Shown here in pieces: positions 9,551 through 61,210 of a DNA stretch of 64,000 bases; within the stretch, counting starts at the first letter, position 1, and each line of letters opens with the position of its first letter. A program made the position numbers and the translations under genes. The notes under the pieces are model-generated. The model had not been told where the DNA came from. It made no database searches and saw nothing but the letters and a program-made list of their open reading frames with translations. Source of the DNA: Chloroflexota bacterium (GTDB taxonomy: Bacteria > Chloroflexota > Dehalococcoidia > GIF9 > AB-539-J10); NCBI GenBank assembly GCA_013388845.1, contig JACAEN010000016.1, positions 21,898 through 85,897 of the forward strand. The letters run 5' to 3'.

Positions 9551-9642
9551 GAGATTGCCACGCCCCGACCCCGATTCATCGGGGGCTCGCAATGACACTC
9601 TCTCGTTTGTCATTGCGAGGAGTGAAGCGACGAAGCAATCTC
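9551..9642. repeat. Inverted doublet of REP-like type I elements (9551-9596 and 9609-9642)
   Basis: gagattgccacg...ctcgcaatgac, a 12-nt spacer, then gtcattgcgagg...gaagcaatctc. The left copy contains ccccgattcatcgggg. The right copy supplies the ATPase stop codon. Confidence 0.88.
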
Positions 9643-21873: not shown

Positions 21874-21974
21874 GTCATTGCGAGCCCCGACTTGTCGGGG
21901 CGTGGCAATCTCTATCCCCCTCAGCCAACAAGATTGCTTTATCGCCCCGATTCATCGGGGCTCCTCGCAATGAC
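21874..21974. repeat. Inverted doublet of REP-like type I elements
   Basis: gtcattgcgag-ccccgacttgtcgggg-cgtggcaatctc ... agattgctttatcg-ccccgattcatcgggg-ctcctcgcaatgac. Confidence 0.88.
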
Positions 21975-26002: not shown

Positions 26003-26019
26003 TCCCGATGGAGTCGGGA
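26003..26019. repeat. CCCGA-N-TCGGG short hairpin, intergenic
   Basis: tcccgat-gga-gtcggga. Confidence 0.55.
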
Positions 26020-32326: not shown

Positions 32327-32584
32327 ATGGATAAAACTTTGTACTTCGTCTATGTCCTGCGAAATCCTCAAGGTCGATTGTACGTGGGCTTTACCACCGA
32401 CTTAGAGAGGCGTGTCCGTCAACATCAGGAAGGCGAGGGTGGCTGGACTCATAGCCGTGGTCCATGGGAGTTAGTTCACTTTGAGGGCTTCACCACGCGG
32501 GCAGAGGCTCTGCGGCGAGAGCGTAATTCGAAGCGTGGTAAAACAAACCAAGAACTTCGGGAGCGTTTTAGCGGAGTTAGGTAG
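32327..32584 (+). CDS. Stand-alone GIY-YIG nuclease (85 aa), linked to tRNA-Asn
   Basis: VYVL...LYVGFTTDLERRVRQH...EALRRE. Stop codon lies in the D-loop of the downstream tRNA copy. Confidence 0.9.
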   Translation: MDKTLYFVYVLRNPQGRLYVGFTTDLERRVRQHQEGEGGWTHSRGPWELVHFEGFTTRAEALRRERNSKRGKTNQELRERFSGVR

Positions 32585-35643: not shown

Positions 35644-35739
35644 CTCTAGATCCTTTTTGCTTAGTATAGCAATTCTGCCATAAATTCAACAGCATAAAGC
35701 TTTTGCTAGCACACAGTATTTGATACAATAATTAACGTT

Positions 35740-35812
35740 GGGGCTGTAGCTTAGCTGGGAGAGCGCCTGCTTTGCAAGCAGGAGGTCAGGGGTTCGAATC
35801 CCCTCAGCTCCA
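35740..35812 (+). tRNA. tRNA-Ala(TGC), CCA not encoded
   Basis: GGGGCTG/CAGCTCC acceptor with G3:U70, loop TT-TGC-AA. Confidence 0.97.
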
Positions 35813-35823
35813 TTCACGTCGAT

Positions 35824-36072
35824 ATGTTTTATGCATATATTCTTCAAAGTGAGACAGGTAATCGATATTACATTGGTTCTACAAAGGATCTATCTCGTAG
35901 AGTAATTGAGCATAATCGAGGAAAAAGCAACTCAACAAAGCCTTATCGTCCCTGGAAGCTGGTGTATTGCGAGTGTTTTCAAACTCTGGCCGAAGCCAGA
36001 CAAAGAGAACAAGAGATTAAATCGTGGAAAAGTCACGAATATCTGAGAAAAACGCTTGGATTGAACGCTTAA
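35824..36072 (+). CDS. Stand-alone GIY-YIG nuclease, copy 1 (82 aa)
   Basis: FYAYILQS...YYIGSTKDLSRRVIEHN...PWKLVY.E.F....EARQREQEIK. Confidence 0.92.
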   Translation: MFYAYILQSETGNRYYIGSTKDLSRRVIEHNRGKSNSTKPYRPWKLVYCECFQTLAEARQREQEIKSWKSHEYLRKTLGLNA

Positions 36073-36131
36073 TCAGGCAGAGCGTCCCGATTGCATCGGG
36101 GAGGTCAGGGGTTCGAATCCCCTCAGCTCCA
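36057..36131 (+). pseudogene. Degenerate tRNA-Ala copy 1 with rewritten anticodon stem
   Basis: D-arm gctt-aatcaggca-gagc, arm tcccg-attgcat-cgggg, T-arm and 3' acceptor identical to tRNA-Ala. Confidence 0.85.
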
Positions 36132-36142
36132 TTCACGTCGAT

Positions 36143-36375
36143 ATGTTTTATACATATATCCTTCAAAGTGAGACAAGTAATCGATATTACATTGGTTCTA
36201 CAAAGGATCCATCCCGTAGAGTAATTGAGCATAATCGAGGAAAAAGCAACTCAACAAAGCCTTATCGTCCCTGGAAGCTGGTGTATTGCGAGTGTTTTCA
36301 AACTCTGGCCGAAGCCAGACAAAGGGAGCAAGAGATTAAATCGTGGAAAAGTCACGAATATCTGAGAAAAACGCT

Positions 36376-36391
<16 letters not shown>
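36143..36391 (+). CDS. Stand-alone GIY-YIG nuclease, copy 2 (82 aa)
   Basis: Near-identical to copy 1 (A4T, G12S, L23P). Confidence 0.92.
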
Positions 36392-36453
<62 letters not shown>

Positions 36454-41087: not shown

Positions 41088-42014
41088 GTGATCGCCATCG
41101 TTGGTCCCACCGCTGTAGGGAAAAGTGAGCTTGCTCTGCACCTAGCTCAATACTTTCCTATAGAGATAATAAGCGCCGATAGCCGTCAGGTCTATCGGCA
41201 TATGGATATCGGCACTAATAAGCCCACTTTGGCTGAGAGGGCAGCGGTCACTCACCATGTCATTGACGTAGTCGAGCCTGATGAAAATTTCAGCCTGGCT
41301 ATGTATCATCGACTAGCCATTGAGGCGCTGGATGCCATTCATCAGAAGGGCAAGTTGCCACTACTGGTCGGTGGCAGCGGACTTTACGTATGGTCGTTGG
41401 TGGAGGGATGGGAAATACCTCGCGTGCCACCCAATCAGCAGCTAAGACGCCGGTTAGAAGTCAGAGCAAAGCAAGAAGGTAGCCATACTCTCTATCAGGA
41501 ATTGCAGGATATTGACCCTGTGGCGGCAGAAAAAATCAATCCCAGCAATATCCGACGCATAATCAGGGCACTGGAAATCTACCAGGCGACCGGGCAGCCT
41601 CCTTCTCAATTACAGCGTAAACGGGCACCATGTTTCTCTGTTTTGATCATCGGTTTAACCCTGGAAAGAAGCGAACTATATAGAAAGATTGATTGGCGTG
41701 TTGATAGAATGATACAGAGGGGATTGGTTGAGGAAGTAGAACAGCTATTGAAAAAAGGTTATAGCCCTTCCCTGCCTTCTATGTCGGGGATAGGTTACAA
41801 GGAAATAGGACAGTTTCTGCGAGGCGAGATGACTTTGCCCGAGTCTATTGATAAAATAAAATATGAAACCCATCGACTGGCTCGTCATCAGTATGCCTGG
41901 TTTCGCCTCAACGATAGCCGGATTCATTGGTTTGATACCGGCGAGGCGGAAGCCAAAGGTACGATTGTCGCACTAAACAAGGTGAAGGGTCTCATAGAAG
42001 GTTTCCTATCATGA
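41088..42014 (+). CDS. miaA: tRNA dimethylallyltransferase
   Basis: GPTAVGKS, ISADSRQVY, VGGSGLY, IGYKE. Confidence 0.96.
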   Translation: MIAIVGPTAVGKSELALHLAQYFPIEIISADSRQVYRHMDIGTNKPTLAERAAVTHHVIDVVEPDENFSLAMYHRLAIEALDAIHQKGKLPLLVGGSGLYVWSLVEGWEIPRVPPNQQLRRRLEVRAKQEGSHTLYQELQDIDPVAAEKINPSNIRRIIRALEIYQATGQPPSQLQRKRAPCFSVLIIGLTLERSELYRKIDWRVDRMIQRGLVEEVEQLLKKGYSPSLPSMSGIGYKEIGQFLRGEMTLPESIDKIKYETHRLARHQYAWFRLNDSRIHWFDTGEAEAKGTIVALNKVKGLIEGFLS

Positions 42015-42901
42015 AATTCTCCAAGTTACAAGGCACAGGCAATGATTTCATCTTGGTTGACGCCAGAACCACGGAAAGGGAATGGTCAAAGCTGGCTCGA
42101 GTTACGTGTGACCGTCACTTTGGAGTAGGAGCCGACGGCTTGATACTAGTGCAGGACTCGACCATCGCTGATTTAAAGATGCGTATTTTTAATTCCGATG
42201 GTTCTGAGGCTGAGGTTTCCGGCAATGGGCTGAGATGTTTTGCTAAGTATGCTATTGAGAAGGGCTTGGCTGGCAAAATATCATCGCCAGCAGAGTCCCG
42301 ATTGCATCGGGACAATCGCTCTCTGACCGTAGAAACTTTGTCAGGCGTAAGAAAGGTTAAAGCTTATATGTCAGGAGATAAGGTCAACCGAGTCGAGGTA
42401 GGTATGGGTCTGCCTCAGTTTCAGCCGCAGCAAATCCCTGTTAAAGTTGACATCCCGATTGCATCGGGACCAATATTAGATTATCGTTTAATAATAGACG
42501 GAAAAGAGTTGACCTTATCTATTCTATCCATGGGTAATCCCCACGCCGTGAGCTTCTCATCGCAACCGGTTGCTGATTTTCCTTTAACTGAAATAGGACC
42601 AAAAGTGGAGAGGCACCCTGTGTTCCCCAAAAAGACCAATTTTGAGATAGCCAGAGTCTTGAACAGGGGAAAGATAGAAGCCAGGGTGTGGGAGCGAGGT
42701 GTTGGAGAAACTCTGGCCTGTGGAAGCGGCGCTTGCGCCATAGCTGTGGCTGCTCAGTTATTAGACCACGTGGATGAACAAGTTGACATAATACTCGAAG
42801 GTGGGACTCTGACCGTATCCTGGGATAGGGTAGGGGAGGTGTTGCTTACCGGTCCCGTGGAGGAAGTTTTCACTGGCGAATGGCCTGGAGGAAAGAGCTG
42901 A
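42011..42901 (+). CDS. dapF: Diaminopimelate epimerase
   Basis: GTGNDF, DRHFGVGADG, NSDGSEAEVSGNG, MGNPH, ERGVGETLACGSG. Confidence 0.94.
   Translation: MKFSKLQGTGNDFILVDARTTEREWSKLARVTCDRHFGVGADGLILVQDSTIADLKMRIFNSDGSEAEVSGNGLRCFAKYAIEKGLAGKISSPAESRLHRDNRSLTVETLSGVRKVKAYMSGDKVNRVEVGMGLPQFQPQQIPVKVDIPIASGPILDYRLIIDGKELTLSILSMGNPHAVSFSSQPVADFPLTEIGPKVERHPVFPKKTNFEIARVLNRGKIEARVWERGVGETLACGSGACAIAVAAQLLDHVDEQVDIILEGGTLTVSWDRVGEVLLTGPVEEVFTGEWPGGKS
42295..42313. repeat. CCCGATTGCATCGGG hairpin in frame in dapF (SRLHRD)
   Basis: gtcccgattgcatcgggac. The 15-nt core is identical to the pseudo-tRNA-Ala anticodon arm. Confidence 0.8.
42452..42470. repeat. Second CCCGATTGCATCGGG hairpin in dapF (IPIASG)
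   Basis: atcccgattgcatcgggac, read in a different frame from the first copy. Confidence 0.8.
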
Positions 42902-51870: not shown

Positions 51871-52278
51871 CGGGCAAGCAAACCTGTAAGCCGAGTTCTG
51901 TCCCCCGACCGAGTCGGGGTGGTGACCATCCATCTAGCCCCGATGTTACCATCGAGGTCAAGCGACCAACCCGAGGGCTTCGGCCGAGCGCCTTAGACTC
52001 ACCCCAGAGTCTTGAGACTTTGGAGCAGTTGAGCCCTCTTATTCGGTCTTGCTCCGGGTGGGGTTTGCCCAGCCAGCCAGTTTCCTGGTTGCTGGTGAGC
52101 TCTTGCCTCACCATTTCACCCTTACCCGCACCCCGATGCCATCAGGGCCGCTGGCGGTATGTTTCTGTGGCACTTTCCGTAGGGTCTCCCCTCCTGGGTA
52201 TTACCCAGCACCCTGCTCGGTAGAGCTCGGACTTTCCTCCCCGATTGTATCGGGGCGGTCACCCGGTTTACTTGCCCG
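51871..52278 (-). ncRNA. rnpB: RNase P RNA (type A)
   Basis: GAGGAAAGTCCGAGCTC, GAAAGTGCCACAGAAA, ACAGAACTCGGCTTAC. P1 cgggcaagtaaacc/ggtttgcttgcccg. Confidence 0.96.
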
Positions 52279-53565: not shown

Positions 53566-53656
53566 GGAGGGGTGACCGAGTGGCTTATGGTGGCGGTCTT
53601 GAAAACCGCTCCCCGACAAAGTCGGGGCGTGGGTTCGAATCCCACCCCCTCCGCCA
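53566..53656 (+). tRNA. tRNA-Ser(TGA)
   Basis: GCGGT-CT-TGA-AA-ACCGC, variable arm ccccgac-aaa-gtcgggg, CCA. Confidence 0.96.
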
Positions 53657-59501: not shown

Positions 59502-60131
59502 TTAGCCGAGATCGTCAAGCTTCGTTTCTAATTTCTTTTGCCCTAGGGCTACTGTTAAATCCCCTCGAGTCCTTTCTATAATGCCTCGCACGGCGTCTGT
59601 GGTTCGCCTCAAGCCATGAGCGAGCAATTCCGGGAAGTCCATAGTTATCAATATTCCGTAGATTTCATCCATTATGGTCAGCAGCTCTTCGCAACGGGAA
59701 AAATCCCCTCGCCTCAGACTATCTAATATATACCTCCGCAATTCTCCTACAGACTCGCCCAAACCATCTAGATAGGCGGTATTGCTTACTCCCAGCGTTT
59801 CTGGCTTAGGCAAGTCCTCCCCAGCAATCAAAGCTAAGGTTATATAGCCTTCAGCTAACTCCTTTTGAGCATCGTGAATAAAACCTGAATGAAGTAGCCT
59901 GCCATGTTCAGCCAGATCGTGGTTTAGCTCTCGAAGTAATTCATGAGCTGAACCAAGGAGTTGCCTTGCCTTATCATGCTCCTGGCGATGCACAGCACGT
60001 ATGGCATCAGCGCTATGGCGGATTACCTGACGGCAACTACGCAAAGCTTTCTCCCGAGCTTCATCCTCAGCCACGAATTGGGGGCGAAGCTCCGCAGCAA
60101 TAGCCTCTAAATCTTCTACAGGTTTTGACAT
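59502..60131 (-). CDS. Translin/TRAX-like protein
   Basis: EAREKAL...AIRAVH, QKELAEG, YLDGLGESVGELRR, LRRTTD. Confidence 0.75.
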   Translation of the reverse strand: MSKPVEDLEAIAAELRPQFVAEDEAREKALRSCRQVIRHSADAIRAVHRQEHDKARQLLGSAHELLRELNHDLAEHGRLLHSGFIHDAQKELAEGYITLALIAGEDLPKPETLGVSNTAYLDGLGESVGELRRYILDSLRRGDFSRCEELLTIMDEIYGILITMDFPELLAHGLRRTTDAVRGIIERTRGDLTVALGQKKLETKLDDLG

Positions 60132-61210
60132 TCTCCCTTTGCCAAGTCCATTTTTGCAATCAATTTCTGCACAGCTTCCCTAACATCTTCCCCGCCCAGA
60201 ACAGCGCTAATTACAGCTACAGCATCAGCACCCGCAGACACCACTTCACCAATATTGCTCTGATTGATGCCACCAATAGCTACCACAGGGATTGATACAC
60301 TGCCTTTGAGCTCCTTAATCCTATCCACACCAACCACAGTAGCCTCCCTTTTTGTTGCCGTGGGAAATATAGAGCCCACAGCAACATAATCGGCTCCTTC
60401 TCTTTGAGCTTTCTTGCCTTGGGACAGCGTCGTGACCGAGCAGCCAACTATTTTATCTATGGGCAATTCCCTGCGGATTACCGGCAAGGGCAGATCCTCC
60501 TGTCCAACGTGAAGCCCATCAGCATCGACAGCCATAGCTAAGTCGAGGTAATCATTTATTATAAATAGAACGCCTGCTTGACTACAGAGAGCTTTGAGCT
60601 TTTGCGCTACAAGTAACAATTCCCCTTTTTTGTCCCGATAAAATCGGGACTTATCGCGAAGCTGAATTACCCCGGCACCTCCCTCAATAATTTGGCCAGC
60701 AATGACCAGCTCATCCCTGCCAGCTAAAAATTGCCTATCCAGAATAACGTAAAGCCCAGTCATCCTCTCCATTTTGTCCCGACGTGATATTCTGGAAACT
60801 AAATCTCGCTCCAAGGTATAAAGGGCAAACCTCATCTGCTGGAAGCTGGCTGAATTCAGTATTGAACTTATCTCTGGCAGTTTAGCTAGCTCTTCTATTA
60901 CACGAAGGGACTCTTCCACTCTTTTAGCATTGGCTGTAACCAGGCCCGAGAGGTCCCGCGCAGACTGCTCCGCTTCTGACTCGTAGCTAGCGCCTGTACG
61001 AGCGCCGACATCACGTTCGGAATCTCTGTGAGATAAGAGCCCTATGTTCAACGATTTAGTCTCCCGGGCTAAATCATGGCGTAGAGTTTTTAACCGCTGG
61101 CTCAGTTCAGCATCGTTGAGCAGAAAGCGAGCGACATCTTCCAGAACTCGCAGGCCTTCACTGGAGCGGTTCAGATTGGCATCAATCACACGCAACAGTT
61201 GATGAGACAC
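60116..61210 (-). CDS. thiE: Thiamine-phosphate synthase with N-terminal extension (ThiD2-like)
   Basis: RVIDANLNRSSEGLRVLED N-domain, IQLRDK, INDY, HVGQEDL, GSIFPT, AIGGI. Confidence 0.9.
   Translation of the reverse strand: MSHQLLRVIDANLNRSSEGLRVLEDVARFLLNDAELSQRLKTLRHDLARETKSLNIGLLSHRDSERDVGARTGASYESEAEQSARDLSGLVTANAKRVEESLRVIEELAKLPEISSILNSASFQQMRFALYTLERDLVSRISRRDKMERMTGLYVILDRQFLAGRDELVIAGQIIEGGAGVIQLRDKSRFYRDKKGELLLVAQKLKALCSQAGVLFIINDYLDLAMAVDADGLHVGQEDLPLPVIRRELPIDKIVGCSVTTLSQGKKAQREGADYVAVGSIFPTATKREATVVGVDRIKELKGSVSIPVVAIGGINQSNIGEVVSAGADAVAVISAVLGGEDVREAVQKLIAKMDLAKGECQNL
60632..60650. repeat. CCCGA-N-TCGGG hairpin in frame in thiE (SRFYRD)
   Basis: gtcccgat-aaa-atcgggac. Confidence 0.75.

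Follow-up and report, generated by a model that had tools for sequence, protein, structure and literature searches.

Small single-domain GIY-YIG nucleases of the Ssn type bind NTS/SRM hairpins when the DNA is single-stranded and cleave it immediately upstream of the repeat, a cut that in Neisseria requires an oriented GTCATT flank (Chenal et al., Nat Commun 2025, PMC11893778). The presence of an Ssn gene goes with the number of repeats, and these repeats, whose link to Ssn-type nucleases was described only in 2025, are reported to avoid genes, NTS being rarely found there (2%; PMC11893778). Other short palindromes that have spread within bacterial genomes are the Rickettsia palindromic elements (RPEs; PMC10969869) and the REP/REPIN sequences (PMC3116915). 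Here, a stretch of 64,000 nucleotides (nt; 'the window') from contig JACAEN010000016.1 was analysed, from the genome of an uncultured Dehalococcoidia bacterium (1.38 Mb in 52 contigs, 48.6% G+C; labelled G000 among the genomes compared), in which the diaminopimelate epimerase gene dapF carries two identical copies of a hairpin-forming 15-mer, CCCGATTGCATCGGG. The 15-mers are probably solo copies of a lineage-specific micro-hairpin repeat that is tied to Ssn-like nucleases and has spread by loop replacement, an explanation in which we place moderate confidence.

The dapF gene (42011..42901, + strand; 296 amino acids) is an intact open reading frame (ORF), the product of which matched DapF chains in the PDB across residues 2-290 (E=1e-61) and was modelled by AlphaFold (AF2) with a pLDDT of 93.6 and a pTM of 0.91; the two-domain DapF fold and similarity over the full length were thereby both recovered. 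A first-pass annotation of the window had pointed to the same 15-mer occurring twice in this gene, and coordinates and translations bore this out: exact copies lie at 42297-42311 and 42454-42468 on the + strand, at a spacing of 157 nt, each within the 17-mer TCCCGATTGCATCGGGA, which occupies 42296..42312 (+) at site 1 (encoding S96-D101; the stem reaches 42295-42313) and 42453..42469 (+) at site 2 (encoding I148-G153). The two copies are read in different frames, since the translation is E-S-R-L-H-R-D at site 1 and I-P-I-A-S-G at site 2. Orthologues from 15 genomes of the same genus and 5 from other families were compared in a codon alignment (20 orthologues; the genus clade had 16 rows), the nearest relative in this set being G022 (85% amino acid identity). 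At site 1, most genus members have the empty form GAG CAA GGC AAT, while the filled form, GAG TCC CGA TTG CAT CGG GAC AAT, was present in the window and G022 only. At site 2, the empty form GTT GAC ATA ATA CCA ATA was found in 12 of the 16 rows of the genus clade and also in the outgroup rows G028 and G029, and the filled form GAC ATC CCG ATT GCA TCG GGA CCA in the window, G022 and G013, with a decayed copy in G017. Relative to same-genus orthologues without the hairpin, GAG-CAAGG-CAAT has become GAG-TCCCGATTGCATCGGGA-CAAT at site 1 and GACA-TAATA-CCAAT has become GACA-TCCCGATTGCATCGGGA-CCAAT at site 2, and both events are consistent with one 17-mer having taken the place of 5 nt, with a net gain of 12 nt (4 codons) each. 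The sites had initially been described as insertions of 18 nt and six amino acids; true insertions they are, as most same-genus DapF sequences lack both hairpins instead of having equal length and related residues there, but their size is smaller than proposed.

As had been anticipated for such inserts, both fall in loops outside regular secondary structure in the AF2 model. Residues 96-101 belong to a loop between helix 71-83 and strand 102-109, form the lowest-confidence block (pLDDT 56) and correspond to a gap in the solved PDB DapF chains, and residues 148-153 belong to a loop preceding strand 155-162. Compared with other families, the genus already has at least 11 extra residues in the loop that holds site 1. 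In both G022 and G017 this DapF loop contains a variant hairpin (CTCCGATGAAATCGGAG or CTCCGATTTCATCGGAT), located upstream of site 1 by a few codons, so that more than one hit has fallen on the same protein loop. Apart from the inserts, Ser (TCC) stands as residue 70 of the window DapF (42218-42220), where the CGNG motif has its first catalytic Cys and where at least 90% of the 34 sequences aligned carry Cys. The second catalytic Cys (ACG(S/T)G) is kept as C237, so the catalytic cysteine pair is incomplete at Ser70; within the genus clade, SGNG occurs in 11 of 16 DapF sequences and CGNG in 5. Judged from the alignment, the substitution may signal changed or lost epimerase chemistry.

A comparable footprint was observed at other sites. 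A survey of 26 solo hairpin sites against 24 genus genomes, in which 40 orthologous stretches were retrieved, yielded 14 comparisons of filled and empty sites besides dapF. In coding sequences (CDSs), seven inserts with 5-nt loops, including the two in dapF, had 17 nt in place of 5 (net +12), the bases replaced at the other five being CTTTG in a ThiE-like ORF, TATCA at C42:100414, CCAAT at C42:90863, TGTTA at C50:9792 and AGATA at C42:67543. The ThiE-like ORF lies in the window (60116-61210, - strand), with the family hairpin TCCCGATAAAATCGGGA at 60633..60649 (net +12 nt); this site is filled in G000, G022, G016, G018 and G023, and empty (CTTTG) in G001 and G004. At the other two 5-nt-loop CDS sites, 11 nt (mutS) and 14 nt (C28:29934) were replaced, and the 16-mers with 4-nt loops in CDSs stood in place of 7 nt at two sites (+9) and of 10 nt at two others (+6). 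All CDS inserts (dapF, ThiE-like, MutS-like and others) were net multiples of three, and 5-6 nt were replaced at non-coding sites. Replacement was also seen inside longer repeats, where GTCATTCTGAG-CGAAG-CGAAGAATC (13 copies) has become GTCATTCTGAG-C-CCCGACTTGTCGGG-G-CGAAGAATC, and in a repeat upstream of a GIY-YIG gene on contig C6, which reads GGAG-CGTAG-CGAC in G022 and G003 and GGAG-TCCCGACGAAATCGGGA-CGAC in G000; SRM-like repeats showed the same 5-nt replacement at their apex, in a GAA or GTA loop. No target-site duplication was seen between filled and empty orthologous sites. These comparisons show a hairpin that replaces a few target bases, most often 5, and does so without duplication. 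The idea that the hairpin loop derives from the target's own three bases was also examined and was dropped, with no match at the seven sites checked.

The dapF 15-mer is one variant within a hairpin family, YCCCGAY-N2-3-RTCGGGR. The CCCGA(Y)...(R)TCGGG stem is by far the most frequent short hairpin in the genome, with 126 copies having 3-8 bases between CCCGA and TCGGG and 113 having 4-5 bases, compared with a single match for a reversed control pattern; the bases flanking the stem covary (GC...GC, GT...AC, AT...AT), and the unit was therefore defined to include these two outer bases, at 16-17 nt. Loops are varied, the most frequent 5-nt loop being TTGCA (5 of 47). About one third of the copies (~40) provide the core for longer repeats of the form tGTCATTGCGAG(G)AGY-hairpin-RCGA..GAAGCAATCTC, while the remainder are solo and are found in intergenic DNA, peripheral helices of RNase P RNA, a helix-25 site of 23S rRNA, the variable arm of a tRNA-Ser, a cassette of pseudo-tRNA copies and, in frame, in CDSs. 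Around half of all family copies lie inside ORFs of at least 150 amino acids, in every frame and on both strands. A listing of all exact copies of CCCGATTGCATCGGG, as the first-pass annotation had proposed, gave five in the genome, all on the + strand of one contig and within 42 kb, four of them in the window and the fifth in the MutS-like ORF. That four copies were unlikely to be due to chance was upheld: with up to two mismatches to CCCGATTGCATCGGG, the window contains 8 matches compared with 0.12 expected, and none of 100 shuffles reached 8.

Those numbers bear on the possibility that no mobility is involved: mutation and selection could have produced the motif where it stands, for instance as a terminator-like element or a site bound by protein, or the copies could resemble one another by chance. 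Across 19 orthologous filled pairs, stems diverged by 10% relative to 16% for flanks (p=0.025) and 18% for loops, and stems better conserved than flanks would also be expected under selection on a binding site. However, filled and empty sites differ by clean blocks of +12, +9 and +6 nt and not by substitutions, identical 15-17-mers occur in unrelated contexts, and both the chance expectation (0.12) and the control pattern (1 versus 113) fall far short of what was observed. We regard this explanation as very improbable, chance and in-place evolution having been rejected on the shuffles, the control pattern and the clean indels. An origin as REP/REPIN-type repeats, moved by a Y1 transposase (RAYT, IS200/IS605-like), seems more improbable still: the hairpins resemble REPs in being short GC-rich palindromes with about a hundred copies, but a search for Y1_Tnp (PF01797) gave no match in the four most hairpin-dense genomes (G000, G022, G013 and G024; control genomes were positive), and about half of the copies lie in long ORFs, unlike REPs.

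Exact copies of the 15-mer are also numerous in relatives (17 in G024, 12 in G013 and 11 in G017) and occur outside the genus, in another family (12 in G039, 6 in G040 and 1 in G038). All 19 extra-genus copies are cores of GTCATT...AATC composite repeats, and solo copies (dapF, priA and others) are confined to the genus among the genomes compared. The priA case is an exact TGC-loop 15-mer close to the N-terminus encoded by a PriA-like ORF in G016 (L118, 1347) and G013 (L204). Further family members in the window are two composite NTS/SRM-like repeats (GTCATTGCGAG-hairpin-...GCAATC; 21886..21959) each with a family hairpin as its core (21886-21899 and 21946-21959), another composite core at 9570-9583, and a copy at 26004-26018. 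A second abundant hairpin family, CCTCTTA-NNN-TAAGAGG, has ~33 copies in the genome (for example, C20:23240-23275 and C50:1075-1110), and a member of it occupies the G022 intergenic site orthologous to C50:8941, where G000 has a CCCGA hairpin.

In structural RNAs, the RNase P RNA gene of the window (51871..52274, - strand; Rfam RF00010, 292.7 bits) contains family hairpins in P3 (52240-52254), at the tip of P12 (52132-52146, a variant) and in a helix near the 3' end (51904-51918). The variable arm of tRNA-Ser(TGA) (53566-53656) is the family hairpin CCCCGACAAAGTCGGGG (53612..53626, + strand; the arm is also written CCCCGACAAAGUCGGGG), and the equivalent arm in G001, of the same genus, reads UUCGCCUUUUGGGCGAA. 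At all four RNase P and tRNA-Ser places G001 has unrelated hairpins of similar size (L186 13908-14307 and 15160-15247), and the event in RNA genes is therefore the exchange of one hairpin for another, as in the pseudo-tRNA-Ala described below. The 23S rRNA gene of G000 has the 17-mer hairpin tCCCGATTTTATCGGGa at C17:34977-34993, a site that we take to be helix 25 by its conserved flanking sequence. At the matching 23S point in G010 (L106 1460-1870) there is a stem-flanked insert of ~300 nt with a GIY-YIG ORF containing one TAG, which from its sequence looks like an intervening sequence carrying a nuclease gene.

A small nuclease gene directly adjoins the hairpin in a tRNA-Ala cassette of the window. 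Downstream of the genuine tRNA-Ala (35739-35813), the only one called by ARAGORN, which did not call the partial tRNA copies, lies a gene for a single-domain GIY-YIG nuclease of 82 amino acids (35824..36072, + strand; Pfam PF01541, E=4e-17 over residues 1-71, no further domain), followed by a second copy at 36143-36391 with 96% identity. Hairpin copies are found at 36085..36101 (+), at the anticodon-arm position of a partial tRNA-Ala copy and 14 nt past the GIY-YIG stop codon, and at 36404..36420 (+), in the second 319-bp tandem unit. Both pseudo-tRNA-Ala arms contain the exact 15-mer, at 36086-36100 and 36405-36419 on the + strand, just as the first-pass annotation had it. Orthologues of the cassette nuclease (70-74% identity) are present in the tRNA-Ala cassettes of G013, G016, G017 and G024, and in each of these (4/4 relatives) the nuclease gene is followed by a CCCGAT-NNN-ATCGGG hairpin, with a TGC loop where the tRNA is tRNA-Ala(TGC) or a TGT or CGA loop where it is tRNA-Ala(CGC). 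A tRNA-Asn cassette in the window (32339-32563, extending downstream to ~32660) contains a different GIY-YIG paralogue (41% identity), and its partial tRNA copy bears other hairpins (TCCTTC...GAAGGA); this cassette suggests that nuclease and hairpin specificities may be paired. In all, the genome has four small single-domain GIY-YIG genes (a pair in the tRNA-Ala cassette and single genes at tRNA-Asn and on C6), and the hairpin repeat lies in the flanks of the tRNA-Ala cassette genes, of the four orthologous cassette genes and of the C6 paralogue (C6:1349-1549), which has composite repeats with a family-hairpin core on both sides. Within the genus, the density of hairpins was 44 per Mb in genomes with a small GIY-YIG gene compared with 11 per Mb in genomes without (Mann-Whitney p=3e-4), and 54 versus 17 per Mb with and without a cassette-type orthologue (p=8e-4), in tests that ignore phylogeny and the incompleteness of metagenome-assembled genomes.

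Besides the limits of these tests, several observations weigh against a nuclease-linked repeat spread by loop replacement. Hairpins were dense in G012 (37 per Mb), where no GIY-YIG gene was found, and in G022 (74 per Mb), which has only a distant GIY-YIG paralogue; the lack of a cassette-type nuclease in G022 is uninformative, as the contig breaks off 335 nt past tRNA-Arg, at the expected position of the cassette. Only a weak GIY-YIG match was obtained in G037, a genome of another family with 75 hairpins. The best PDB matches of the 82-amino-acid protein were UPF0213 proteins (1zg2 and 1ywl, E=1e-5). The genome shows no enrichment of the degenerate SRM motif as published (9 matches, compared with 3 in the reversed genome and 3-9 in shuffles), for which reason the repeats are called NTS-like here and not SRM members, and the oriented GTCATT flank is present in ~40 composite copies and absent from the dapF and cassette copies. 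Footprints of 10, 11 or 14 nt could represent decayed hairpins in genomes scored as empty. Finally, in a three-gene tree (dapF without the hairpin columns, and both neighbour genes), site 2 requires two changes, with G021 (site 2 empty) grouping with G013 and G017 (support 99/96), but holding the four site-2 carriers together was not rejected (approximately unbiased test, p=0.13), and the claim is therefore limited to an old insert. An independent double gain at site 2 is, for the same reason, not claimed.

The dapF comparison shows both patches to have been retained across species. The dapF genes of G000 and G013 share 76% nucleotide identity (59% at third positions) with an identical site-2 15-mer, and the site-2 insert must be old, as it is common to four species with about this identity. 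In assembled contigs from another hot-spring metagenome (X4), which contain a relative of ~91% identity, site 2 is identical, while at site 1 the stem is intact and the loop has changed from TGC to GTA in all three bases (42303-42305); no joints were seen in this metagenome material, which consisted of assembled contigs only. Whole-loop differences with intact stems were also observed at other orthologous sites and in the G022 RNase P RNA. Such a pattern points to stems being kept either by constraint at the DNA level or by conversion between copies.

The distribution of the two sites also allows a more local origin, in which only the older site 2 came from outside and a local template switch then produced site 1 from that copy, across 157 nt. 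Site 2 is present in four species and site 1 only in G000 and G022, and the sites agree over 18 bases (TCCCGATTGCATCGGGAC), after which comes CAAT or CCAAT, in a family in which loops otherwise differ widely between copies. The TGC loop is, however, the commonest 5-nt variant (5/47), which puts a chance match at ~5-10%, and a local event has no independent mark. Intragenic copying is thus a possible but tentative account of site 1.

A related question is whether the cassette was the direct source, its rewritten anticodon hairpin having been copied into dapF and mutS with the TGC loop left over from the Ala anticodon. All five copies have the same 15-mer and lie on one strand in 42 kb around the cassette, and the four TGC-loop loci of G000 are clustered around it (~0.001 by resampling, post hoc). 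TGC loops are found in the tRNA-Ala(TGC) cassettes of both G000 and G016, and the mutS hairpin has a TGC loop in G000, near this cassette, compared with TGT or CGT-type loops in the orthologues of G013 and G017, which would fit local conversion towards the cassette. Against this, 11-17 exact copies are present in G013, G017 and G024, the cassettes of which carry TGT or CGA loops; the copies in G039 (12) and G040 (6) are all GTCATT...AATC cores outside any tRNA; dapF site 2 is common to G013 and G017, and so is old; and the clustering of identical hairpin variants was not significant genome-wide (p=0.10). Since the 15-mer is abundant in genomes with other cassette loops and in another family, the hairpin is older and wider than this cassette, and a direct origin in the cassette is considered unlikely. 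The direct link between cassette and dispersed insertions that was first suggested therefore stands at the level of the family and of local clustering, and does not extend to the cassette as specific donor, the 15-mer being common elsewhere; the relationship with dapF is one of family membership, possibly with local copying or conversion, and not a demonstrated cassette origin. The first interpretation of the loop as an Ala anticodon fared poorly for similar reasons, in that the rewritten arm has a loop of 3-5 nt compared with the 7 nt of an anticodon loop, orthologous cassettes have TGT or CGA instead, and the 15-mer is common without tRNA context.

With the nuclease-linked repeat as the preferred explanation, we infer the following mechanism of spread from the sequence comparisons. 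The hairpin would serve as the element recognised by the genome's Ssn-like single-strand nucleases, small proteins with a lone GIY-YIG domain, one lineage of which sits directly beside it in the tRNA-Ala cassette. A single-stranded loop that is nicked or gapped would be repaired or copied from another copy of the hairpin, by template switch or short-patch conversion, and the survivors would be in-frame events in permissive protein loops, or swaps of one RNA hairpin for another. The common TGC loop of cassette, dapF and mutS would then probably have come from local copying or conversion among neighbours on the same strand. A stronger version, in which the 16-17 nt hairpin is an autonomous mobile DNA unit, among the smallest known, with hairpin-for-loop writing dependent on an Ssn-like nuclease, is regarded as rather doubtful. 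Were it true, such a unit would have remodelled essential RNAs (P3 and P12 of RNase P RNA, 23S helix 25 and the tRNA-Ser arm) as well as protein surface loops, and conversion would keep neighbouring copies alike.

The literature consulted on such repeats describes neither a replacement footprint nor a spread into proteins and RNAs. What the genome offers is a minimal, 17-nt version with a readable footprint, in which ~5 target bases are replaced without duplication, with copies in proteins, other repeats and essential RNAs. Sister species provide filled and empty versions of a site for comparison, and together with the footprint this makes both the spread of the hairpin and the role of the nuclease directly testable. 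If the explanation holds, a selfish DNA motif has added short peptide loops to housekeeping enzymes and rewritten peripheral RNA helices.

Among known systems, REP/REPIN sequences with their RAYTs are similar in consisting of short palindromes that have multiplied inside a genome and are believed to function as hairpins of single-stranded DNA; they differ in that the RAYT/Y1 transposase was not found in the genomes searched here, and in that the present hairpins are not confined to extragenic DNA. RPEs, which are in-frame MITEs (miniature transposable elements with inverted repeats), share palindromes that lie in frame at tolerated positions of unrelated housekeeping genes, with copies also in RNA genes. 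They are, however, ~100-150 bp long and encode a conserved peptide, whereas the hairpins here have 16-17 nt, are read in all frames, replace ~5 nt and add 2-4 codons; the MITE/RPE features of ~100-150 bp, terminal inverted repeats and target-site duplication were not found, bases being replaced and not duplicated. The small dispersed repeats (SDRs) of heterocystous cyanobacteria, the subject of a study by Elhai et al. in Genome Res 2008, are reportedly ~20 nt long, hairpin-forming and nested in other repeats, and are said to be candidates for the smallest mobile DNA, with an RNA intermediate proposed. To our knowledge, no nuclease partner has been described for SDRs, and neither a 5-nt replacement footprint nor in-frame CDS copies have been documented; their sequence and phylum are unrelated to those of the dapF hairpin family. 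The closest system is that of Ssn and NTS/SRM (PMC11893778). It differs in that the dapF unit is only the inner hairpin of 16-17 nt without the oriented GTCATT flank, in that 2% of NTS are in genes whereas about half of the copies here are in long ORFs and several in RNA genes, and in that one nuclease lineage here is located inside tRNA genes. The base repeat of the genome, GTCATTCTGAGCGAAGCGAAGAATC, fails the SRM motif, yet matches the NTS, CGTCATTCCCGCGMAVGCGGGAATC, by position (GTCATTC-5 nt-GAA-GCG..-AATC). Both systems have small genes for single-domain GIY-YIG proteins (~80-100 amino acids; 82 here) with an adjoining hairpin repeat and about a hundred or more dispersed copies, and in both the abundance of the repeat follows the presence of the gene.

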